From an uncultured Gammaproteobacteria bacterium (GTDB lineage: Bacteria; Patescibacteriota; Patescibacteriia; Magasanikbacterales; GWA2-37-8): 64,000 bases of DNA. Below are positions 1-55,894 of the stretch, in pieces (within the stretch, counting starts at the first letter, position 1; every line of letters begins with the position of its first letter). The position numbers and the translations under genes are program-made. Where the stretch lies: positions 46,496-110,495 of the forward strand of contig CAZHNI010000002.1 in the NCBI GenBank assembly GCA_964533715.1, given 5' to 3'. The notes beneath the pieces are model-generated. The model saw nothing but the letters and a program-made list of their open reading frames with translations, was not told the origin of the DNA and searched no databases.

Positions 1-163
1 ACAGGAAGGTCGCGATGACCAGAGAAAAATACTTTAAATCCTTAAAAAGTAAAATTGCTTTAAAAAATTTTATAAAAAATAATGCTAAAGTTGGTTAGAG
101 TCCCGACCTGTCGGGATTTACACCGAGGGGGTCGAGGGTTCGAATCCCTTGGCGTGCACGCCA
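1..163 (+). ncRNA. tRNA-like 3' domain ending in CCA (T-arm GGTTCGAATCC). Possibly the 3' portion of tmRNA (ssrA) or an atypical tRNA; the 5' partner strand is not found in the window.
   Basis: The canonical T-loop GGTTCGAATCC lies at 137-147 within a 5-7 bp T-stem (gaggg/ccctt), followed by a 7-nt strand and discriminator, and then CCA at 161-163. A D-loop-like AGTTGGTTAGAG is at 89-100. No standard 7-nt anticodon loop and no 5' acceptor strand could be folded. An intrinsic terminator follows immediately. Confidence 0.35.
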
Positions 164-167
164 TTTG

Positions 168-192
168 AAACAGAGTAAAACCTCTGTTTTTT
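168..192 (+). terminator. Rho-independent terminator (stem AAACAGAG / CTCTGTTT followed by a T-run)
   Basis: Perfect 8-bp inverted repeat with a 6-nt loop, followed by TTTTTT, directly after the tRNA-like CCA end. Confidence 0.6.
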
Positions 193-275
193 GTTGGGTA
201 AGTACATTACATTGACTGAAAAAATCAAGTCTGTTAGGATGGGCCTACACCAGCCATCCCGGCTAGGAGGTGCAC

Positions 276-1121
276 ATGTCGGCAAGAAGCTTCGTGCGAA
301 TGCTGAAAGCGCAGTGGGTGCTGCGGAAGTTCGTCTGCGTCGGGCTCGATCCCGATCCGAGCAAGATCCCCGGCTACACCGAGCAGGCGGGGACCATGGC
401 GGTCCGCGGGTTCCTCGAGGAGATCATCCTGAGCACCCACGACCTCGTGGGCGCCTACAAGCCGAACCTGGCGTTCTTCGAGCAGTTCGGCCCCGAGGGT
501 CTCCAGCTTCTGGTCGAGATCTGTCAGCACATCCGGTCGGTGTGCCCGCAGGTTCCCATCATCCTCGACGCCAAGCGCGGTGACATCGGGAACACCAACG
601 AGGGGTATGCCCGCTTCCTGTTCGATCGGTGCTGCGGCGACGCGGTCACCGTCCACCCGTACCTGGGGCAGGAGGCGCTCGCGCCGTTCCTCGCCCGCAA
701 GGACAAGGGCGTCTTTGTCCTCTGCCGGACCTCGAACCCAGGCGCGGGCGAGTTCCAGGATTTTCTCGGTCCGGACGGCACGCCGCTGTACCTGCGCGTC
801 GCCAGGAACGTGGCCACGAGCTGGAACGCGAACAACAACTGCGGCCTGGTCACCGGCGCCACCTATCCCATCGAGATCGCGGCGGTGCGCGAGGTAGCGC
901 CGAACCTGCCGCTCCTCATCCCGGGCGTCGGCAAGCAGGGCGGCGATCTGGAGTCGGCCGTGAAGGCGGCCCTGGCCGCCGACGGCGAGGGCAACTTCCT
1001 GGTCAACGCCTCGCGCGACATTCTGTACGCCTCGAAGGGCGACGACTACGCCCGGGCGGCACGGGCTGCCACGCTGCGGCTCCACGGCGAGATCATCCGG
1101 CACCTCGGGCTCACGGACTGA
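276..1121 (+). CDS. pyrF: Orotidine 5'-phosphate decarboxylase, type 2 (long, actinobacterial-like form)
   Basis: Motifs GLDPDP, KPNLAFFE, ILDAKRGDIGNT, VTVHPYLG, VFVLCRTSNP and LIPGVGKQGG line up with type-2 OMP decarboxylases. AGGAGG sits 5 nt upstream of the ATG at 276 (the listed ORF starts at an in-frame GTG at 270). The gene is markedly GC-rich compared with its flanks. Confidence 0.85.
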   Translation: MSARSFVRMLKAQWVLRKFVCVGLDPDPSKIPGYTEQAGTMAVRGFLEEIILSTHDLVGAYKPNLAFFEQFGPEGLQLLVEICQHIRSVCPQVPIILDAKRGDIGNTNEGYARFLFDRCCGDAVTVHPYLGQEALAPFLARKDKGVFVLCRTSNPGAGEFQDFLGPDGTPLYLRVARNVATSWNANNNCGLVTGATYPIEIAAVREVAPNLPLLIPGVGKQGGDLESAVKAALAADGEGNFLVNASRDILYASKGDDYARAARAATLRLHGEIIRHLGLTD

Positions 1122-1180
1122 TTCACCCCCGTTCTTCCCGCGGCGCGCGCCGTACCTACGAATTCGTCCCATCATCGATT

Positions 1181-1253
1181 CAGTGGTGGCGGGGCGATCG
1201 CAAGGTCCCCCGCCACTGTTATGTCTACAAAACAAAAGTGGGCATAACAGTGG
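1181..1253. repeat. Two overlapping GC-rich hairpins after pyrF: GTGGCGGGG...CCCCCGCCAC, and the 11-bp inverted repeat CCACTGTTATG...CATAACAGTGG
   Basis: Inverted repeats read directly from the sequence. The second one resembles the ACTGTYAT termini of the palindromic elements at 5207 and 22173. Confidence 0.35.
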
Positions 1254-1271
1254 GGATCTTGTGAAAATGAA

Positions 1272-1310
1272 ACCACCCCGATTTATTTCGGAGTGGTTTT
1301 TAATTTTTTT
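1272..1310. terminator. Bidirectional terminator-like hairpin (ACCACCCCGA / TCGGAGTGGT) with T-runs on the + side and an A-run on the other
   Basis: 10-bp stem with 1 mismatch and a 6-nt loop, followed by TTTTTAATTTTTTT. It lies between convergent genes (pyrF on + and the surface protein on -). Confidence 0.45.
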
Positions 1311-1365: not shown

Positions 1366-2937
1366 CTAAATTTTTATTAATCGTCTAATCAACCATGTCC
1401 CACCACCGATAATTACTACTCCTAGAGCAACCGCAATTGGTATTGTCGACGATCTGGACTGAGATATATTTTGTTTGAATATAACAGTGCTTGTAACGGT
1501 AGAAAACGGTTCCGTGCTGTTGCCGGCATAAGCGAGAAGTTTCAACAAATTCTCACCGTTCTCAAGCGTAAGTGTTTTTTTATATGTTCCATCTGTATTA
1601 ACAGCCAACTCAATTTTTTCACCGTTGAAGTTAAGAAATACCTGGGCATTAGGATTTGTGGACGTTCCGGAAATAACAAACTTATCGTTGGTGGTTTTAA
1701 CAGTCTGGCCAGAAGACAGGTTGCTAGTAAAAGAGGGTGCCATTGCAATGGTAATTTTCTCCCCTTCTTTCACATATTTTGTAATTGCGCTAGATTTAAC
1801 TGTAACGCTCTTTGCCCCCTCCTTTGTGAGAGCAACAGTATATTCATCCTTTTGGAGTGCACGACCATTTAAGGTAACCGGTGAATCGACAGTAAGTGTC
1901 TTGGCTGTATCGTAGAACGTGCAGTTAACGTCGGTTTTAAACAGTGCCCAGAATTTCCACTCAAACCAGACGTAGTAATAATCCAGGTGAGTCATGTTGT
2001 CGAGGTTTTTGAAGGTGTCGGCAGCAGTCTTGCTGGTCAAATTGGCCTGTCCTAAAAATGTAAAGTACATGAAGTTAGCGCGATCCAGGGAAAAATTTTT
2101 GACTCGGGCAGGATCGGTGCGTTTTAAATCCGTTGATTTTGAACCGGGAAAATAGTAATAGTTGTTGATCTGCACCTGGGTGATGGACGTAATAGCAGTT
2201 TGTTGGATAGCAACGACGGTGTTTTGTGTGTTTACTTGTTGAGGAGACTCTTTAATAACACTCGGAAACGCACATGAACCATTATCATGGGTGGCGTTTG
2301 GATCGTAATTAGTCGCGGCACGATCGGTGCATCCATACACTACGTTGGTGGTGGGGGTAATTACTGCTTTTGCAAACGTACAGGATCCATCGTCATTCGT
2401 CGCGGCGGCGTTATAATTGGTGGCGGTTCTATTGGTACAGCCATATACTACTGTGGGGCTCGTAACCGTTGTTGCTTTGGGGAGCACGCACGAGCCATCG
2501 TCTTGGGTTGCTTTTGGGTTGTAGTTAGAAGCGCGGTAATCGGTGCAACCTGTCACAACCGGATGGTTAATGGTAAAAATACCCGACAAATCTTCAACAC
2601 TTCCTTCACCTGTTTGACCGCCTATGAGGTCGATATAGAATTTAGTGTTAGCATTGTTGCTCATGTTAATTTTCCAAACGTATGATCCTGTGTTCGGTAT
2701 GTGAAATGCAATCCAGTCTAAGCAACTGGGGCAGGTTTTATACCCAATGGTAACAGTATCAATGTTTGGCGAAGAATCCCATTTTATAGTTACGGTATCC
2801 CCATCATTGTACACTTCACCGCCTGTGGGGTTAGTGAGTTTAACATATCCGGTCATGACTGCCTCACTACTCTCGGCACCTATGGTCGTAAACAGCACAA
2901 GACAGACGAAAAAGAGGAGAGTTTTAAAATAGCGCAT
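1366..2937 (-). CDS. Secreted, C-terminally membrane-anchored surface protein with three tandem ~37-aa Cys-containing repeats
   Basis: N-terminal signal peptide (MRYFKTLLFFVCLVLFTTIGA). Three repeats of the form VVxGCTDxxAxNYNxxATxDDGSC. C-terminal hydrophobic helix IPIAVALGVVIIGGGTWLI followed by RRLIKI. Confidence 0.7.
   Translation of the reverse strand: MRYFKTLLFFVCLVLFTTIGAESSEAVMTGYVKLTNPTGGEVYNDGDTVTIKWDSSPNIDTVTIGYKTCPSCLDWIAFHIPNTGSYVWKINMSNNANTKFYIDLIGGQTGEGSVEDLSGIFTINHPVVTGCTDYRASNYNPKATQDDGSCVLPKATTVTSPTVVYGCTNRTATNYNAAATNDDGSCTFAKAVITPTTNVVYGCTDRAATNYDPNATHDNGSCAFPSVIKESPQQVNTQNTVVAIQQTAITSITQVQINNYYYFPGSKSTDLKRTDPARVKNFSLDRANFMYFTFLGQANLTSKTAADTFKNLDNMTHLDYYYVWFEWKFWALFKTDVNCTFYDTAKTLTVDSPVTLNGRALQKDEYTVALTKEGAKSVTVKSSAITKYVKEGEKITIAMAPSFTSNLSSGQTVKTTNDKFVISGTSTNPNAQVFLNFNGEKIELAVNTDGTYKKTLTLENGENLLKLLAYAGNSTEPFSTVTSTVIFKQNISQSRSSTIPIAVALGVVIIGGGTWLIRRLIKI
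2263..2564 (-). repeat. Three tandem in-frame coding repeats (~111 bp each) inside the surface-protein gene
   Basis: Protein repeats at residues ~126-152, 163-189 and 199-225. The opposite-strand ORF 2287-2685 shows the same periodicity. Confidence 0.7.
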
Positions 2938-3036
2938 AGATTTGGTTACAAAATTGATATTTTAAAGATGTTGGGAACATACCACATATTGCTTGGCTTG
3001 GCAATAAATAAATAAGATTATTTTTATATAAATTGA

Positions 3037-3065
3037 TTGACTTATTGACGAAAAAAGAGTTTAAT
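3037..3065 (+). promoter_or_regulatory. Candidate sigma70-type promoter (TTGACT - 17 nt - TTTAAT) for the gene at 3097
   Basis: Hexamers and spacing read from the sequence, about 30 nt upstream of the ORF start in an AT-rich divergent intergenic region. Confidence 0.35.
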
Positions 3066-3096
3066 TTGTTTACTTATTAAGTAGCAATTTTAAACT

Positions 3097-4242
3097 ATGA
3101 CAGGATCAGGCAATAATAGGCATGGTGGTATTATAACAGAAGTTTTACAAAGGGAGACAGAAAGAACCCAACCCGACATGGCTCACAAAAAAATTGAGGA
3201 AGCAAAGAAACTTTTTATATCCATGGGTTTAGAGGTGAGCGGCGGTGGGTTTATTTCAAATAATATTTCGCCAAAAAAATTGGCAGAACTTCACGAGTGG
3301 CACGAATCGACGAGAGGGAAGGGAGGTATTGATATGCCAACAGAAGACTCTTTTTATGAAAAAGTTTATCTCGCCGTTTCTTTGTGGCCCCAAAGGGAAG
3401 ATACAAAAATAAACTATTTGTTAGGAAAGGGAGTTGGGGTGGAGGTTGCACTGAGGGGAACAGTTGTTGGAAGAGAAAAAAGGAAAATTGTTTTTCCTTA
3501 TCGGACACATTCCGACTTTGAATTGTACGGAGTTGACTATGAAAATGAAACATCTGAACAAACACCAAGTCTAGCTAAGCCGGTTTATACTCCAGGATTT
3601 AAGCAGGTATTTGGAGCCCAGGAGTATTATCCGCCAACCAAAACAAAAGGTCTTAAAGATATACCTCCTGGGCTACTGTATAAGACTGCCGAATCAGTAG
3701 ATTTAGGTGGAGTGCGAGTGCTTGTTCCAAAATTAGAATTACTATTTTTAGATAAATGGATGGCTCAAGAAACAACACCTAGAGCAGAAGGCAATGACGC
3801 TGAATTATTGGCCAGGCAATATAGTCTCGACAAGGATGAATTGCACGAATATTTGCAAAGATTTGTGGTTGAACCACGAATAAAATCAGTAGAGGCTGAC
3901 GGGAAAGTTTTATCAACCAGACATCTAAGCAATATAGAAAGATATCTGATAATCAAAATGAAAAGTATTGAAGAACCAACAAAAGAAAATATGGTTGCTT
4001 CTCTAAATACAGAAATAGCGCAATATTTATCTATTGATCCAAATGTAAGCATATCTGGGATTAGCGGAAAGTTGTGGATTCCTTTGTCGGCAGACCAAAT
4101 TGATGAGGGTGGTAAGTTAATTGATCAGTCTTATATAGATGAAGTAAATCGTAAAGTTGAAACTCAAACCAAAGTAAAAATAGAAAAAATCAATAATTTT
4201 CACACTGATCTAGATAAATTCTTGAGTCGTGTTGCTGATTGA
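3097..4242 (+). CDS. Hypothetical protein (381 aa; no recognisable domain; start could be the internal Met at 3178)
   Basis: Long ORF with native low-GC composition. No family-level motif recognised. Confidence 0.6.
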   Translation: MTGSGNNRHGGIITEVLQRETERTQPDMAHKKIEEAKKLFISMGLEVSGGGFISNNISPKKLAELHEWHESTRGKGGIDMPTEDSFYEKVYLAVSLWPQREDTKINYLLGKGVGVEVALRGTVVGREKRKIVFPYRTHSDFELYGVDYENETSEQTPSLAKPVYTPGFKQVFGAQEYYPPTKTKGLKDIPPGLLYKTAESVDLGGVRVLVPKLELLFLDKWMAQETTPRAEGNDAELLARQYSLDKDELHEYLQRFVVEPRIKSVEADGKVLSTRHLSNIERYLIIKMKSIEEPTKENMVASLNTEIAQYLSIDPNVSISGISGKLWIPLSADQIDEGGKLIDQSYIDEVNRKVETQTKVKIEKINNFHTDLDKFLSRVAD

Positions 4243-4450
4243 AGCTCATTTTATTTCTTTATACAACCCAGTGAGTTTGTTAAAAACTAATTCCGGAGTA
4301 CAAGTTACTAAAATCAACCCATCTTGATTTCATTAACTTTTAAAAAACAACCCTATCACTTTTATCACAATGTATTATGGTAAAAGTGACAGATCGGGTG
4401 GTTTTAATTCCCGAGCTATCATCGGGAGTTGATGCGGACGCCTCGGTGAC

Positions 4451-5059
4451 TTACTTGGGTGAGTGGACGGAGTGGTAGAGGGGGTGGCCGTAGACCGGAT
4501 AGCTGCCGGTCCCTTCGGCGGAGCAGGACGCGTAGCCGCCCCACTCGATGTAGAGGGCCGCGCCTGGGGGTGCCTCGTTCCAGTTCGTGCACACCACCTG
4601 GAAAGGAATCAGCTTGTCCTTTTCCAGGTGAAGCGGCGTGCTGCCTGGCATCCAGTAGCCAGAGTTGGGGCCGATTTGCTCGCCGATGGTGTCCCCCCCG
4701 CCGTAGCCAATTTCTCCGGTGGGGACTCCGTTCAGCCAGACCTCGATCCGGGGCACCCAGTTGCTGCGTTCATAGCCGAGCCACAGGGACACACCCTCAA
4801 GGTTGATCGGCTGGCAGTCGGCGCTGTCAGCGGCGTGCATGGCGCCGTTGATCAGCACCGCGACCGACTGAGACGCCGGCACCTCATCCGGCGGAGGGGT
4901 GGCCGGCTCAAAGACCGGGAAGCCCGGCACGATCATGTACTTGGCCGTCAGGGTGTACCCCGGGCGGGTTTCGGACAGCACCGGACCGCACTGTGGCTCC
5001 GGCCGATCGGCACCGCAACTAGCCGCGAGCAGCAGAGACAAAACAACCAGTTGGCGCAT
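4451..5059 (-). CDS. High-GC lipoprotein of unknown function
   Basis: Lipobox LLLAASCGA. RBS GAAAGGAAG 6 nt upstream of the ATG. GC-rich codon usage unlike the flanks. The antisense ORFs 4459-4806 and 4463-5110 are judged spurious. Confidence 0.7.
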   Translation of the reverse strand: MRQLVVLSLLLAASCGADRPEPQCGPVLSETRPGYTLTAKYMIVPGFPVFEPATPPPDEVPASQSVAVLINGAMHAADSADCQPINLEGVSLWLGYERSNWVPRIEVWLNGVPTGEIGYGGGDTIGEQIGPNSGYWMPGSTPLHLEKDKLIPFQVVCTNWNEAPPGAALYIEWGGYASCSAEGTGSYPVYGHPLYHSVHSPK

Positions 5060-5206: not shown

Positions 5207-5375
5207 CCTTAAGCTTTGAATTACGAAACACCCATTTTGTCATCCTGAACCCCGCTCAAGCGGGGTGAAGGATCTCTGTCCGGTTGTTAACTTGGCCAAC
5301 GTTGGCCAATTAAGACAGAGATTCTTCGCTCTGCTCAGAATGACAGTTGAGTTTCGTAACTCAAAGCCCTTAAGG
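5207..5375. repeat. ~170-bp imperfect palindromic (MITE-like) element, copy A
   Basis: Outer inverted repeat CCTTAAGCTTTGAATTACGAAAC / GTTTCGTAACTCAAAGCCCTTAAGG. Inner termini TTGTCATCCTGA / TCAGAATGACAGTT. Internal hairpin CCCCGCTCAAGCGGGG. Central perfect palindrome TTGGCCAACGTTGGCCAA. Homologous to the element at 22173-22330. Confidence 0.55.
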
Positions 5376-6798: not shown

Positions 6799-7953
6799 AT
6801 GTCAAATTCATATTTATTTACTTCGGAGTCCGTTACGGAAGGTCACCCAGATAAAATTTGTGATCAAATTTCCGATGCGGTGCTCGACAGTCTTTTGGAT
6901 CAAGACCCCAATTCACATGTGGCAGTGGAATGTTTTACTACTACCGGGCTTGTAATTGTGGGTGGTGAGGTAACCACCAAAGGGTATGTGGATGTGCAAA
7001 AAATTACCCGTGCAGTTTTGGATGATATTGGGTATACCGACCCAGCGTATGGCATTGATGCTGAACACGCCGGTATTTTAGTTTCAATCCACGAACAGTC
7101 ACCTGATATTGCCCAGGGGGTAAACAGAACCAGTGTGGAAGATCAGGGCGCGGGCGACCAGGGGCTTATGTTTGGTTACGCCTGTAACGAAACTCCAGAA
7201 TTAATGCCACTCCCAATAACTTTGGCACATCGTTTGGCCGAGCAGCTGGCTAACGTGCGTAAAAGTGGCGAATTGCCATATTTACGTCCAGACGGCAAGA
7301 CACAAGTGGCGGTTGTGTATGAAAATAATAAACCGGTTAGACTTGAGAATGTGGTAGTGGCGGCGCAGCATCATGACACGGTAACGCTTGAACAAATTAG
7401 AAAAGATATTATTGAGCATGTTATAGAGCCAATATGCAGCCATTATATTGACGACAAAACCCAGTTTTTTATAAATATGACCGGAAAATTTGTGGTGGGT
7501 GGGCCGCAAGGCGATACTGGTTTAACTGGCCGTAAAATTATTGTGGATACCTATGGCGGCATGGGTCGGCACGGCGGTGGTTGTTTTTCTGGTAAAGATC
7601 CAAGTAAAGTGGATCGTTCTGGTGCCTATATGGCTCGCTATGTTGCCAAAAATATTGTGGCCGCCGGGTTGGCCGAGCGCTGTGAAGTACAAGTCTCTTA
7701 TGTAATTGGTCGCGCTGAGCCTACCAGTATTAACGTTAATTCTTTTGGCACATCAAAAGCGGGCGACGACAAGCTAATTGAGGCAGTTAAAAAAGTTTTT
7801 GATTTTCGTCCCGGTAAAATTATTGAAGCGTTGGATTTGCTTCGTCCCATATATCGAGCCACGGCGGCATATGGACATTTTGGTAGAGCGGAATTTCCGT
7901 GGGAAAAAATAGATAAAGTAGAAGCTCTTAAAGCACAGGTTGGAAACAAATAA
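6799..7953 (+). CDS. metK: S-adenosylmethionine synthetase
   Basis: Motifs [30 protein letters not shown] and [19 protein letters not shown]. The real start is the ATG at 6799 ([19 protein letters not shown]); the listed 5' extension from 6721 is non-coding leader. Confidence 0.92.
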
Positions 7954-19692: not shown

Positions 19693-19785
19693 GGGATGTT
19701 CAAATTGCGTCTTTTTGGGCATAATTTGAATGTTAAAACTGTTCTTTTACAATCTATTTGAAGCAATACAAAATGTAATAACGTT

Positions 19786-19903
19786 CCTTGGCACGAAGAG
19801 AGGATAGAAACTAGAAATTGGAAATTGGAAATTGGGGATTTTTAAATCGTCCCGAGTTTCTTATTTCTAGTTTTTAATTTCCAATTTTTCTCCGTGCCAA
19901 GGG
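19786..19903. repeat. Complex repeat/hairpin region: inverted repeat CCTTGGCACG...CGTGCCAAGG enclosing three tandem GAAATTG units plus interleaved complementary blocks
   Basis: AAACTAGAAAT pairs with ATTTCTAGTTT, and AATTGGAAATT pairs with AATTTCCAATT. The block order is not compatible with a single simple hairpin. Followed by the hairpins GGGAC-taaggtt-GTCCC and TCCGGC-tctaa-GCCGGA, the latter abutting the RBS GGAGGAGG. Confidence 0.5.
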
Positions 19904-19960
19904 ACTAAGGTTGTCCCAAGGCTTGTCCCCATTTCCGGCTCTAAGCCGGAGGAGGTTCCC

Positions 19961-20746
19961 ATGTACCAGCAGATCATCCGCATCGCCGCCCTCGTCTTCG
20001 CGCTTTTCGTCCTCAACTCCGCCCCGGCCTCGGCCAAGAAGCCGGCCCCGGTCGCCGAGATCGAGAGTCCCGACCTCTCCCTCGCGAAGGTCCGTTTCAA
20101 GACCGGCGAAAAGAAGTACGAGGCCGAGGACTACGCCGGCGCCCTCAAGGAGTTCGAGGGCGCGAAGTTCCTGCAGCCCAAGCGCATCGAGCTCGATTAC
20201 AACATCGCGCGCTGCCACGATCGGCTGGGCAACTGGGAGCAGGCGGTGAAGTTCTACACCGCCTACGCCGACACGAAGCCGAAGGACGAGAAGGAGGTGA
20301 GGGAGCGTATCGCGATCCTCAAGGAGAGGCTCGCGGCGAAGCCCCTCACCACCCCCGCCGTTGCCGGCACCCAGCCCGCTCCGCCCGCCCTGGCTCCCGC
20401 CCCCGCGACGCGGACTGACGGTGGCGTCACGCCCGCGGCTCCCGCCACCCCCTACGCCGGCAGCAAGCCGAACCTCAACCTGCCGGCCCCCGCCCCGGCC
20501 CCGCCCGCCGCGACTGTCCCGCTCGTTCCGACGACCCAGCCCGTGGCCCCCACGTCGACCAGCCCGCCCTTCTACAAGAAGTGGTGGTTCTGGACGGCCG
20601 TGGGCGCCGCCGCGCTCGTCGCGGTCGGCGTCGGCATCGGCGTCGGAGCTTCGCGGGAAACCACCTATTCCCAGACCCGCCCGGACCTGGGGACCGTTCA
20701 CTTCAACCTCAACCTCTTTCCCACCCCCGACACGGGGGGGAGGTGA
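19961..20746 (+). CDS. High-GC secreted TPR-like / proline-rich protein with a C-terminal TM helix
   Basis: RBS GGAGGAGG. Signal peptide IAALVFALFVLNSAPASA. Long Pro/Ala-rich linker. TM helix WWFWTAVGAAALVAVGVGIGVG. GC-rich. Confidence 0.65.
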   Translation: MYQQIIRIAALVFALFVLNSAPASAKKPAPVAEIESPDLSLAKVRFKTGEKKYEAEDYAGALKEFEGAKFLQPKRIELDYNIARCHDRLGNWEQAVKFYTAYADTKPKDEKEVRERIAILKERLAAKPLTTPAVAGTQPAPPALAPAPATRTDGGVTPAAPATPYAGSKPNLNLPAPAPAPPAATVPLVPTTQPVAPTSTSPPFYKKWWFWTAVGAAALVAVGVGIGVGASRETTYSQTRPDLGTVHFNLNLFPTPDTGGR

Positions 20747-20749
20747 CCC

Positions 20750-22006
20750 ATGCGCCAGACCCTCTTCGCCTTGATGGTCGCCGCCCTCCTCGCGGGGTGC
20801 GGCGCCGACATGCGCCCGTGCCCCAAGGGCGCGGTCCGTATCCACATGCAGTTCGACCAGGTCGTCCGTGATCGTGGGTACGCCGTCACGGCGACCCTCA
20901 CGATCGATGGGGTGTCGGTCCAGACCCCCTTCGACCCCAGCATCAACGGGGATGCGGAAGGGAATATGGACTTCGTCTTCACCCATGGCTACCCGGCGAT
21001 CGGTGCAGAGGCGCAGATCGACCTGGTCGTGCGTCGCAACAGCGACATCGTCGGCGAGGGGCACGCAACCTTCGAGATCACCGAAGGGTGCACCTACGTC
21101 GTCGTCCCGGTGACCGCTTCGGTGGCACCTGAGGACGGCGGCACTGATCTCGCGCGGCTCGACGGCGGCGCTGACCTGTCTCGGCCGGACCTCGCCAGTG
21201 GCGACGGTTCGGTCGACCAGGCCACCCCGCCTGACCTCACGACGCCCCCCGACCTGACGCGCCCCCCCGGCGACCTCACCGTTCCGCCCCCTGACCTCAC
21301 CGTCGCGGGGGACATGGCGCGGCTCCCGGACGCGGCCCTCCCCGACCTGACCACCGCCCCGCCTGACCTCACGACGCCCCCCGACCTGACGCGCCCCCCG
21401 GACCTCGTGGCCACGCCCGATCTGGTTCTCGCCTGCAATCTCGACGCCGACTGTGGCAGCAAGACCGGTGGTGCCTGCAAGAACGGCACCTGCCAGCCCC
21501 CTGCATGCACCGACGGCCTCAAGAACCAGGACGAGACTGACGTCGACTGCGGCGGCGCCAAGTGCGTGCCGTGCGTGCCCACCAAGGCGTGTATCAAGGA
21601 CGCCGATTGCATCATTCCGTGGTGCAACCCCAGCACCAAGAGGTGCGGCAACATGGTCGGTACGGTCTTCATCGGATCGGAGGGCGAGAAAATTGACCTG
21701 AACAACCCGGCGAACAACCCGCCGCCCGTGTGGAGCTGCCTCGACGCCTGCGCCAAGAAGTTCGGTGCCGGTACCTACCGCTGCTCCACCGTGCTCGGCT
21801 CCGTCAACGGGCTGAGCTGGTCGCAGTGCTACGGCGACGGGCAGCACTGCTCCCCTGGTGGAGAGGTGTCCGAGAGCTACAAACTCGGCACCACCTACTA
21901 CTGCCCAGGGGCGCCGGGCTGCGCCTGCTCGGCGTGGGTCGACTACCAGAACAGCGGTGGTTCGGCCTGCGCCAACGCGGGCGCCAAGTCCTACTGCTTC
22001 AAGTAG
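20750..22006 (+). CDS. High-GC lipoprotein with PPDLT(T/R)P repeats and a Cys-rich C-terminal domain
   Basis: Lipobox LLAGCGA. RBS GGGAGG overlaps the upstream stop. Repeated TPPDLTTPPDLTRPP. About 30 Cys in the C-terminal 190 aa (CxxGxCxxxxC patterns). The antisense ORF 19874-22150 is rejected. Confidence 0.7.
   Translation: MRQTLFALMVAALLAGCGADMRPCPKGAVRIHMQFDQVVRDRGYAVTATLTIDGVSVQTPFDPSINGDAEGNMDFVFTHGYPAIGAEAQIDLVVRRNSDIVGEGHATFEITEGCTYVVVPVTASVAPEDGGTDLARLDGGADLSRPDLASGDGSVDQATPPDLTTPPDLTRPPGDLTVPPPDLTVAGDMARLPDAALPDLTTAPPDLTTPPDLTRPPDLVATPDLVLACNLDADCGSKTGGACKNGTCQPPACTDGLKNQDETDVDCGGAKCVPCVPTKACIKDADCIIPWCNPSTKRCGNMVGTVFIGSEGEKIDLNNPANNPPPVWSCLDACAKKFGAGTYRCSTVLGSVNGLSWSQCYGDGQHCSPGGEVSESYKLGTTYYCPGAPGCACSAWVDYQNSGGSACANAGAKSYCFK
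21226..21398 (+). repeat. Two copies of a ~43-bp direct repeat (CCCCGCCTGACCTCACGACGCCCCCCGACCTGACGCGCCCCCC) encoding the PPDLTTPPDLTRPP motif
   Basis: Identical DNA blocks at 21226-21268 and 21356-21398. Confidence 0.6.
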
Positions 22007-22011
22007 ACCCC

Positions 22012-22057
22012 CGCCAGAGGGCGGAGCCCACTTCGGTGGTGCTCCGCCCTCGGCGGA
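22012..22057 (+). other. GC-rich hairpin (GCCAGAGGGCGGAGC...GCTCCGCCCTCGGCGG) at the 3' end of the high-GC islet
   Basis: Near-perfect 16-bp inverted repeat with no T-run after it. Confidence 0.4.
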
Positions 22058-22140
22058 TCTAACCTCGCGGTTGCCTACGGCGACCGCTTCTCTCTTGTAC
22101 TCAAGATTAGTTAAATCGTGGTTACAAGTATAGAAAAAAT

Positions 22141-22172: not shown

Positions 22173-22330
22173 ATTAAGTTTGGTTAATAACTGTCATTCC
22201 GACTGAGGAGCTCGCGCGACGAGTGGAGGAATCCCTTGGTTCGTTAAATGGCGATTTTGGTAAAAGGGATTTCTCGACTAGGCCTCCGGCCTCGCTCGAA
22301 ATGACAGTTTTTCATTGAGCTATTTTTGTT
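22173..22330. repeat. ~150-bp imperfect palindromic (MITE-like) element, copy B, homologous to 5207-5375
   Basis: Termini AACTGTCATTCCGACTGAGG / CTCGCTCGAAATGACAGTT, inner GGAATCCCTT / AAGGGATTTC, internal hairpin CTCGcgcgaCGAG. Shares TGTCATYC, GTGRAGGA-TC and GAAATGACAGTT with copy A. The left flank ATTAAGTTTGG resembles copy A's CTTAAGCTTTG. Confidence 0.55.
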
Positions 22331-54959: not shown

Positions 54960-54998
54960 AATCAAAACCGTCCAGATGATTTCTGGACGGTTTTGATT
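54960..54998. terminator. Perfect 15-16-bp hairpin (ATCAAAACCGTCCAG-atgattt-CTGGACGGTTTTGAT) between two minus-strand genes, at the edge of the high-GC islet
   Basis: Inverted repeat read directly. Likely the terminator of the high-GC gene ending at 55058. Confidence 0.5.
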
Positions 54999-55057
54999 AG
55001 TGCTCGAGGGGGGTGGAAACCTCAGGGGGATGTCGAGCGGCATCGTGAGGGGGGGCT

Positions 55058-55894
55058 CTAGAAGATCTGGAGGTCGAGGAGGGCGCGGAGCGCCAGGGCG
55101 CGGCACATGTTGCCGCCCTTGGTCTGCATCCGCACCACCCGGTTCAGCGTCTGGAAGGCGCCGGCCGGGTTGTCGAGTCGGAGCTGGGCCTTGGCCGCGA
55201 AGAGGAGCGCGGTCCCGATGGCGTCCCCGTACTCGCCGGTGAGCGCGGTCGCCTCGGCGATCTCGATGGCGCTGGTGAAGTCGCCGGCGTCGTAGAGCCT
55301 GGCCACCTGGGCCATCATCCAGAACGGGCGGAACAGGTCGTGGTAGCGGTTGTCGGCCGCCTCCATCGCCTGCATCGCCGCCAGGTACGACGAGCGGCCC
55401 TGGTACTGGTTGATGTTGGCGAGCATGCTCGCCTCGACGACGTGGGCCGGGATGTTCCCCTCGACCCACTCGAGCGCACGAGGGGACTCGTCGCCCGCGA
55501 GCGCCTGCTGCGCCACTGCGGCGGCGGCGGCGAGCCGGTTGAAGGTGTGGCCCAGCTCGTCGCCCCTGACCACGGCGTTGTTGAACGCCGAGACCGTGGC
55601 GAGGAACGCCTCGATCGCGTAGCTGGTGTCGGTCTCGCGCGTTGCCGGGGGCGAGCGGTACTGCTCGGCGGCCAGCAGGTGCAGGTTGATCAGCGCACCG
55701 TAGCCGCCGCCGTCGCGCGTCATGATGCGGGCGTTGTAGCCGGCGCGGAGCGCGAGCGCCGTGCGCTCGACCCCGTCCGGCAGCTCCGCGATCTCCGCCA
55801 TGACCTCACGCAGGAGGACGGCGGCTTCCCCGAATCCCTCGTTGGTCTGGCGCAGCGCGTACACCCGGTCGATTTTTTTTCCGATTTCTTCCAT
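55058..55894 (-). CDS. High-GC all-helical hypothetical protein (278 aa)
   Basis: RBS AAGGAGGG 8 nt upstream of the ATG at 55894 (MEEIGKKIDRVY). GC-rich throughout. The plus-strand antisense ORFs 55340-55939 and 55000-55242 are judged spurious. Confidence 0.6.
   Translation of the reverse strand: MEEIGKKIDRVYALRQTNEGFGEAAVLLREVMAEIAELPDGVERTALALRAGYNARIMTRDGGGYGALINLHLLAAEQYRSPPATRETDTSYAIEAFLATVSAFNNAVVRGDELGHTFNRLAAAAAVAQQALAGDESPRALEWVEGNIPAHVVEASMLANINQYQGRSSYLAAMQAMEAADNRYHDLFRPFWMMAQVARLYDAGDFTSAIEIAEATALTGEYGDAIGTALLFAAKAQLRLDNPAGAFQTLNRVVRMQTKGGNMCRALALRALLDLQIF

Follow-up and report, generated by a model that had tools for sequence, protein, structure and literature searches.

A high-GC pyrF islet in a low-GC Magasanikbacteria contig is probably a recent foreign acquisition and has three further high-GC islets for company

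The DNA analysed here, referred to as the window, is a 64-kb stretch of contig CAZHNI010000002.1 (assembly GCA_964533715.1). Near its left end lies a short islet of high guanine-plus-cytosine (GC) content that carries pyrF, a gene for orotidine-5'-phosphate (OMP) decarboxylase. Its 974 bp comprise an intact gene of the type-2 OMP decarboxylase family, a ribosome-binding site of donor type and, on the 3' side, a GC-rich hairpin. The segment shows no drift toward the composition of the host, and it sits in a variable interval next to a decayed tRNA-Val. We consider it likely that a member of Candidatus Magasanikbacteria, within the Candidate Phyla Radiation (CPR, or Patescibacteria), has recently gained this gene from a foreign source and carries it in its chromosome, and that the islet is one of at least four insertions in the window derived from high-GC bacterial DNA. 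The coordinates of the features are listed in Table 1.

The background of the window is about 40% GC. Segmentation with a two-state GC hidden Markov model (HMM; switch probability 1e-6), with GC profiles alongside, gave four high-GC segments of 66-71% GC, which together make up 7.25% of the window. The pyrF segment, at 67.5% GC, is bounded by stretches of 37.9% and 39.4% GC. The gene itself has a GC of 0.675, with values of 0.67, 0.45 and 0.91 at the first, second and third codon positions (GC1, GC2 and GC3). GC3 was 0.82-0.95 in the five genes of the islets as against 0.27-0.44 in sixteen native genes, and third-position usage was alike across the five (C 0.47-0.58, G 0.30-0.39). A sequence-only reading of this DNA had described pyrF as far richer in GC than its neighbours, which these values bear out. 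It had also treated the gene as a lone islet, a picture that must be given up: the sliding-window GC and codon-usage profiles it proposed bring out foreign codon usage and three further high-GC islets.

Translation signals divide the genes in the same manner. A perfect AGGAGG precedes pyrF, and Shine-Dalgarno (SD) sites were present in all five islet genes, with a 7-nt match in four of them. By comparison, an SD-like match of at least 4 nt was missing upstream of 40 of the 44 native open reading frames (ORFs) when 18 nt were scanned, and the earlier statement that AGGAGG stands out among native genes without SD motifs thus holds. The regions upstream of native genes are also AT-rich, and several carry -10-like boxes very near the ATG. 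This native pattern suggests leaderless or SD-independent initiation in this organism.

Lawrence and Ochman are said to have provided the amelioration framework for compositionally atypical acquired genes, and the Muto-Osawa and Lawrence-Ochman regressions relate codon-position GC to genome GC. The GC3 of pyrF implies a donor of about 73% GC, while its GC1 and GC2 imply 65-67%; over the islet genes the implied donors lie roughly at 67-75% GC. Because the donor GC obtained from GC3 of pyrF is not below the values from GC1 and GC2, no amelioration is detectable.

By profile match and conserved residues, pyrF is an intact gene for a type-2 OMP decarboxylase. The product matched the NCBIfam model TIGR02127 (pyrF_sub2) at 245.4 bits (cutoff 110.6), with residues 6-262 covering profile positions 1-260 of 261, and the Pfam family OMPdecase (PF00215) at 99.1 bits (E=4.6e-28; cutoff 27). 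Every column that is invariant in nine aligned homologues is kept, including D25 (GLDP), K62 (YKPN), D98-A-K100-R-G-D103, Q221-G-G and R247 (SR). We take these conserved residues, among them the Asp-x-Lys-x-x-Asp motif, to be the catalytic or active-site residues of the OMP decarboxylase family. The predicted enzyme would convert OMP to UMP, the last step of UMP synthesis, and would be useful only alongside an orotate phosphoribosyltransferase encoded elsewhere in the genome. Pfam scans found no pyr-related domain in the other scanned ORFs of the window, in agreement with the earlier remark that no other pyrimidine genes lie nearby.

Among 5.8 billion proteins, the best matches of PyrF were only 52-57% identical. 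The named ones (52-56% identity) belong to Uhr-, Kaiser-, Pace- and Levybacteria, Parcubacteria and Ktedonobacteria, and the others lie on unnamed contigs; the contigs of the top matches have 52-55% GC. A DNA-level scan of JGI metagenomes gave no identity above 55%. In length class and invariant residues the window gene resembles the TIGR02127 pyrF-pyrE pairs of CPR-like and Chloroflexota contigs. However, it is at most 57% identical to any known TIGR02127 member, and it stands alone, whereas homologous pyrF genes are often followed by a phosphoribosyltransferase gene, as in the loci L081, L083 and L084. It also differs from its homologues in setting: in 31 JGI loci the GC of the homologous gene was within 0.10 of its own flanks, but the window gene is 28 points above them (+0.28).

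The sequence-only reading had called this pyrF actinobacterial in type and had proposed a BLASTP search for the phylum of its best hits. The label is acceptable loosely, in the sense of type 2, but the affiliation is not, since the named best matches are CPR and Ktedonobacteria rather than Actinobacteria. Structure comparison likewise gave 185.5 bits to an OMPDC domain that is presumably from Leishmania, as against 97.9 bits to PDB entry 3v75, which we take to be the Streptomyces PyrF.

The right border of the islet is strongly structured. Folding of positions 1119-1310 gave -84.1 kcal/mol (z = -7.9), and so the hairpins reported earlier on this side of the gene are indeed there. The palindrome that straddles the compositional border is a single copy in the window, and no copy was present in any fetched locus. 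On the left side, the putative pyrF promoter lies in low-GC DNA and stops at the islet border. Further left, the element previously noticed as tRNA-like proved to be a degenerate tRNA-Val(TAC). Its 5' acceptor strand is lost, and a 9-nt insertion makes a hairpin that replaces the 5' strand of the anticodon stem. A blastn comparison with the intact tRNA-Val of relatives gave 95% identity over positions 117-159. ARAGORN and Rfam made no tRNA or Rfam call in the 64-kb window, the remnant at 84-158 included. The 3' half of the tRNA occurs once in the window and the 5' half nowhere; neither direct repeats at the islet borders nor a duplicated tRNA 3' end was found within the window.

Table 1. Positions of the features in the window and of the islets in its relatives
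Feature	Position	Strand	Description
Decayed tRNA-Val(TAC) pseudogene	~84-158	+	D-loop and anticodon loop to 3' end conserved
Terminator-like hairpin with T-run	169-192	+	AACAGAG-taaaac-CTCTGTT-TTTT; low-GC host DNA after the tRNA remnant
Putative pyrF promoter	212-240	+	sigma-70-like; TTGACT, 17 nt, TG-n-TAGGAT; 9/12 consensus matches, with TG
HMM segment 1 (pyrF islet, islet 1)	241-1214		974 bp, 67.5% GC
SD site AGGAGG	265-270	+	5 nt before the ATG at 276
pyrF	276-1121	+	281 aa, type-2 orotidine-5'-phosphate decarboxylase
Out-of-frame ORF	629-1264	+	211 aa; exact match to P0248, called as gene on the public contig instead of pyrF
GC-rich stem	1181-1218		probable terminator of the donor; alternative to the palindrome 1198-1264
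Imperfect palindrome	1198-1264		67 nt; straddles the right compositional border, one arm high-GC, the other low-GC
Host bidirectional terminator hairpin	1269-1300		in common with the convergent 523-aa gene, 1366-2937 (-)
HMM segment 2	4434-5033		600 bp, 66.3% GC
Islet 2	4434-5059 (CDS 4451-5059)	-	202-aa lipoprotein-like ORF, 65% GC, GC3 0.82
Sigma-70-like match, islet 2	5203-5175		low-GC DNA upstream
Sigma-70-like matches, islet 3	19726-19774		low-GC DNA upstream
HMM segment 3	19892-22087		2,196 bp, 68.7% GC
Islet 3	19892-22087	+	two-gene unit, closes at terminator hairpin 22067-22087
Islet gene 3A	19961-20746	+	TPR protein with signal peptide
Islet gene 3B	20750-22006	+	lipoprotein with PPDLT repeats and Cys-rich domain
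HMM segment 4	55002-55871		870 bp, 70.8% GC
Islet 4	55002-55894 (CDS 55058-55894)	-	278-aa all-helical orphan ORF
Sigma-70-like match, islet 4	55988-55960		11/12 consensus matches
Islets of relative L085	2732-3293, 4026-4582, 4897-6360
Islet of relative L087	3167-3657
Islet of relative L001	3685-4964

The setting of the islet is that of a CPR genome. MetK (6799-7953) matches P0121 of a public NCBI contig of 110,616 bp at 100% identity and many further proteins at 79-88%; where these carry a name, it is mostly Candidatus Magasanikbacteria. The rest of the window also fits a CPR chromosome: among its genes are those for an ECF sigma factor and its DUF5667 partner, for O-antigen-ligase/TPR proteins and for a long series of glycosyltransferases. 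At least three relatives were reached through MetK, namely the metagenome-assembled genomes (MAGs) L085 (GCA_023246655.1), L087 (GCA_023246725.1) and L001 (isolate nzgw350). P0245, the representative of the permease cluster, was set aside as an unrelated 56-aa protein on a 778-bp contig.

In all three relatives an intact tRNA-Val(TAC) stands immediately upstream of a permease-MetK gene pair, and the spacing between tRNA and permease is about 90-185 bp, compared with 5.26 kb in the window. Within these 5.26 kb lie the pyrF islet and islet 2, two genes of low GC (523 aa and 381 aa) and a structured repeat. The interval is variable and adjoins a tRNA, and foreign DNA often collects in such places. 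The two low-GC genes, at 1366-4242, are missing from the equivalent interval in the relatives and were probably acquired too. One product is a surface protein with Kre9/KNH-like and Glucodextran_B domains, the other a protein of unknown function, and both are singletons in the protein collection.

Public records of this DNA bear on both the gene call and the continuity of the sequence. Exact look-ups in the protein collection place five native proteins and the islet-2 protein on the NCBI contig that also carries P0121. The pyrF frame is missing from that collection. The gene called on the public contig in its place, P0248, corresponds to the out-of-frame ORF 629-1264, which is not a real gene. 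It is because the public gene call used the wrong frame that pyrF is missing from the collection and that no close protein is found there. Since P0248, which corresponds to window positions 629-1264, lies on the deposited contig, the islet DNA and its right junction belong to the deposited sequence.

The remaining islets share the architecture of the first. In each, a strong SD site lies in a short leader ahead of one or two complete ORFs, and the 3' region bears hairpins; no partial neighbouring gene occurs within any of the four. All eight ends lie in donor intergenic DNA, with 5' leaders of about 22-70 nt; islets 1 and 3 finish at terminator stems, and long inverted repeats adjoin six of the eight borders. 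Upstream of each islet, host-type promoter matches were located in low-GC DNA; such matches are frequent in AT-rich DNA, and the sites are to be read as leads rather than proof. Islet 4 is flanked by its low-GC promoter match on one side and by a perfect 17-bp low-GC hairpin (54960-54998) on the other.

The proteins of these islets have few relatives. Profile searches matched the islet-2 protein to no known family. In a set of 1.84 billion representatives the islet-4 protein had six weak matches, none above 28% identity, and 3B gave partial matches only, the named ones in Myxococcota (Nannocystis, Labilithrix). Predicted structures of the islet-2 (pLDDT 41) and islet-4 (pLDDT 59) proteins were of too low a quality to support fold searches. 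Comparison of the islet proteins with PHROG and PADLOC gave no convincing family; the only matches were two weak ones between PHROG families and 3A. A phage route was rejected, as no relatives of the pyrF, islet-2 or islet-4 protein were found on viral contigs. An origin of 3A from the neighbouring native TPR gene was also rejected, the two sequences being without similarity.

Some further observations concern the DNA around the islets. An imperfect hairpin of 123 nt with GAAATTG repeats (19783-19905) abuts the 5' border of islet 3, after the promoter-like sites. Two structured elements of about 125-155 nt (5213-5367 and 22186-22312) each separate an islet from the next native gene and have GTCATYCYGA...GAATGAC in their inverted ends. 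In appearance they form a family like miniature inverted-repeat transposable elements (MITE) or repetitive extragenic palindromes (REP). From 22384 to 53957 extends a long, mostly same-strand cluster of genes for glycosyltransferases, PMT-family mannosyltransferases, methyltransferases and two asparagine-synthase paralogues, which presumably makes a cell-surface glycan.

High-GC islets also occur in the low-GC DNA of the three relatives: three in L085 (61-73% GC), one in L087 and one in L001, all in the syntenic region upstream of the tRNA-Val. The L001 islet repeats the layout seen in the window: it has a promoter-like site in low-GC DNA, the SD site AAGGAG, one ORF (about 410 aa) and a terminator. 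No homology of these islets to one another or to the window islets was found; hence the process recurs independently. Contig L086 from ENA, named in the MEGAHIT style, and the NCBI MAG contig L085 share 9,427 bp at 100% identity, one high/low-GC junction included, and we infer that reads span this junction.

These data also weigh on whether the islets exist in the organism at all. In principle, the assembler could have built high-GC stretches of another organism in the metagenome into the CPR contig. In favour of this, GC changes abruptly and by an extreme amount, the contig was assembled from a metagenome, and the relative's contig L086 stops 289 bp inside a high-GC islet, where the assembly graph is not simple. 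However, eight false joins in 64 kb would be needed, all at host intergenic sites, with whole genes only and no Ns. Moreover, islets of this kind are present in three further Magasanikbacteria MAGs, one junction is the same in L085 and L086, and an abundant donor would be expected in public assemblies, in which nothing exceeds 57% identity. We therefore hold a chimera to be very improbable. The sequence-only reading had offered either recent horizontal acquisition or a chimera; the first stands, and the second is weakened by the deposited contig, the eight joins and the islets of relatives. Even less credible, and in our judgement hardly conceivable, is a rise in GC of native genes where they stand, for example through a GC-biased process limited to one transcription unit. 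Most of the named pyrF relatives are CPR, which would fit a family common to other CPR, and the islets lie between host-type promoters and terminators. Yet PyrF is equally distant from its low-GC and high-GC homologues (47-57% identity) and not nearer to the CPR ones, the Cys-rich domain of 3B occurs elsewhere in proteins of Myxococcota, 3A shows no relationship to the native TPR protein beside it, and the islets brought SD sites that the host does not use. To our knowledge, no process can shift GC by 28 points across only a few bases.

A dedicated capture of gene cassettes would account for other features. Under such a mechanism, whether integron-like, hairpin-targeted or by reverse transcription of donor mRNAs, promoterless units the size of a gene or transcript would be placed at hairpin sites behind host promoters. 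The intergenic position of all eight ends with their short leaders, the terminator stems closing islets 1 and 3, the long hairpins beside six of the eight borders, the promoter match upstream of each islet and the same layout in L001 are all in its favour. Promoter and hairpin matches are, however, common in AT-rich intergenic DNA. Pfam searches of the window ORFs of at least 150 aa, bar a few overlapping ones, listed no integrase, transposase or reverse transcriptase domain. An integron cassette with attC was rejected, as the only GTT...AAC palindrome (1213-1253) reads GTTATG...CATAAC, opposite in polarity to R''(RYYYAAC)...R'(GTTRRRY). An integron array was rejected too, because no integrase lies in the window and the islets are spread over 55 kb. 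Across the islets neither target-site duplications nor end motifs in common nor a common flanking 'vector' were found, and the flanks of different islets are mutually unrelated. We thus regard dedicated capture as distinctly unlikely.

Recent horizontal acquisition is accordingly the best reading, on the grounds of foreign composition, codon usage and translation signals and of the lack of amelioration. Several separate transfer events were probably involved; the number of islets and their sharp bounds are unusual, but the transfer is ordinary in kind. DNA of a high-GC organism would have been taken up by the cell and integrated by illegitimate recombination into intergenic, hairpin-rich DNA. 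Deletions may then have trimmed the non-functional flanks and left whole genes behind host-type promoters. The gene pyrF would be transcribed from the promoter-like site upstream of the islet and translated from its own AGGAGG. Its product would turn OMP into UMP, to the benefit of the cell only if combined with a phosphoribosyltransferase coded elsewhere, as in the CPR-like pyrF-pyrE pairs.

Several points weigh against this acquisition. No donor is known, and the identity of pyrF does not exceed 57% to anything in 5.8 billion proteins or 55% in JGI contigs. The islet-4 protein is an orphan, and 3B has only one domain in common with other proteins. A missing donor is unexpected where transfer was so recent that no amelioration is seen, and this is the main unexplained point. 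That all eight islet ends lie in donor intergenic DNA is not predicted by random fragment insertion and needs selection and deletion in addition, and the host's own genes do not use SD sites. Codon usage is a less decisive witness than it may seem: the mean distance among the four islets was 1.03, compared with 1.11 +/- 0.16 for four genes of one high-GC locus and 1.37 +/- 0.16 for four genes of four different loci, and only 0.6% of four-locus draws were as low, but the panel comprised 11 loci and extreme GC3 compresses such distances.

The codon-usage comparison is suggestive of one donor lineage for the four islets, and this lineage is possibly the organism on which the CPR cell lives. A bolder form of the same idea is that the islets here and in related Magasanikbacteria are imports from a single unsampled high-GC lineage, the physical host or prey, maybe through gene- or transcript-precise capture behind host-type promoters. 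We think this rather unlikely. If it were true, the islets would record the host association of ultra-small cells.

The islets can be compared with the 'genomic islets' of classical description. Both consist of complete accessory genes, are foreign in GC, in codon usage and in their translation signals, and occupy variable DNA beside a tRNA gene. Of the features of classical tRNA-linked islands, the atypical composition and the tRNA-adjacent site are found here; in contrast to such islands, no integrase or other mobility gene was found among the scanned ORFs of the window, and no flanking direct repeats within it. The window islets are also far smaller (0.6-2.2 kb), with four in 64 kb, and they combine a very large GC contrast and no amelioration with the lack of an identifiable donor.

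In groundwater Patescibacteria, up to 13% of genome length has been attributed to horizontal gene transfer (Gios et al. 2025, PMC12455944). The islands reported there span 2.7-45 kb, and the transfers detected with MetaCHIP were mostly between Patescibacteria and not recent, with gene-pair divergence averaging 23.7% (PMC12455944). A text search of that paper for pyrF, orotidine and Magasanik gave no matches, and its two mentions of GC content are unrelated to small high-GC islets. Its MAGs come from the same phylum and habitat type; the relatives described here carry JAHFH* accessions, and the name nzgw350 of L001 matches its MAG naming. A loose parallel is offered by a Gracilibacterium, in which a region with a surface gene of Pro/Thr/Asp repeats possibly came from a co-occurring bacterium (Sieber et al. 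2019, PMC6851277). Islet 3 likewise encodes a repeat protein, the PPDLT-repeat lipoprotein. In the Gracilibacterium case, however, Colwellia was at hand as a candidate partner and the region was checked against reads, whereas the window islets are without an identified donor.

What is noteworthy in the window is how densely the islets lie and how precisely their ends fit whole genes, together with the contrast in SD sites, the shared codon signature, the mis-annotation and the lack of a known donor. Metabolic reconstructions based on wrong-frame gene calls would miss the pyrF enzyme, and high-GC islets of other low-GC MAGs may be mis-annotated likewise. The hosts of groundwater CPR bacteria are mostly unknown, and unameliorated genes with one codon signature can serve as a search key. 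The donor, and perhaps the host, could be traced through high-GC contigs from the same samples that nearly match the islets.

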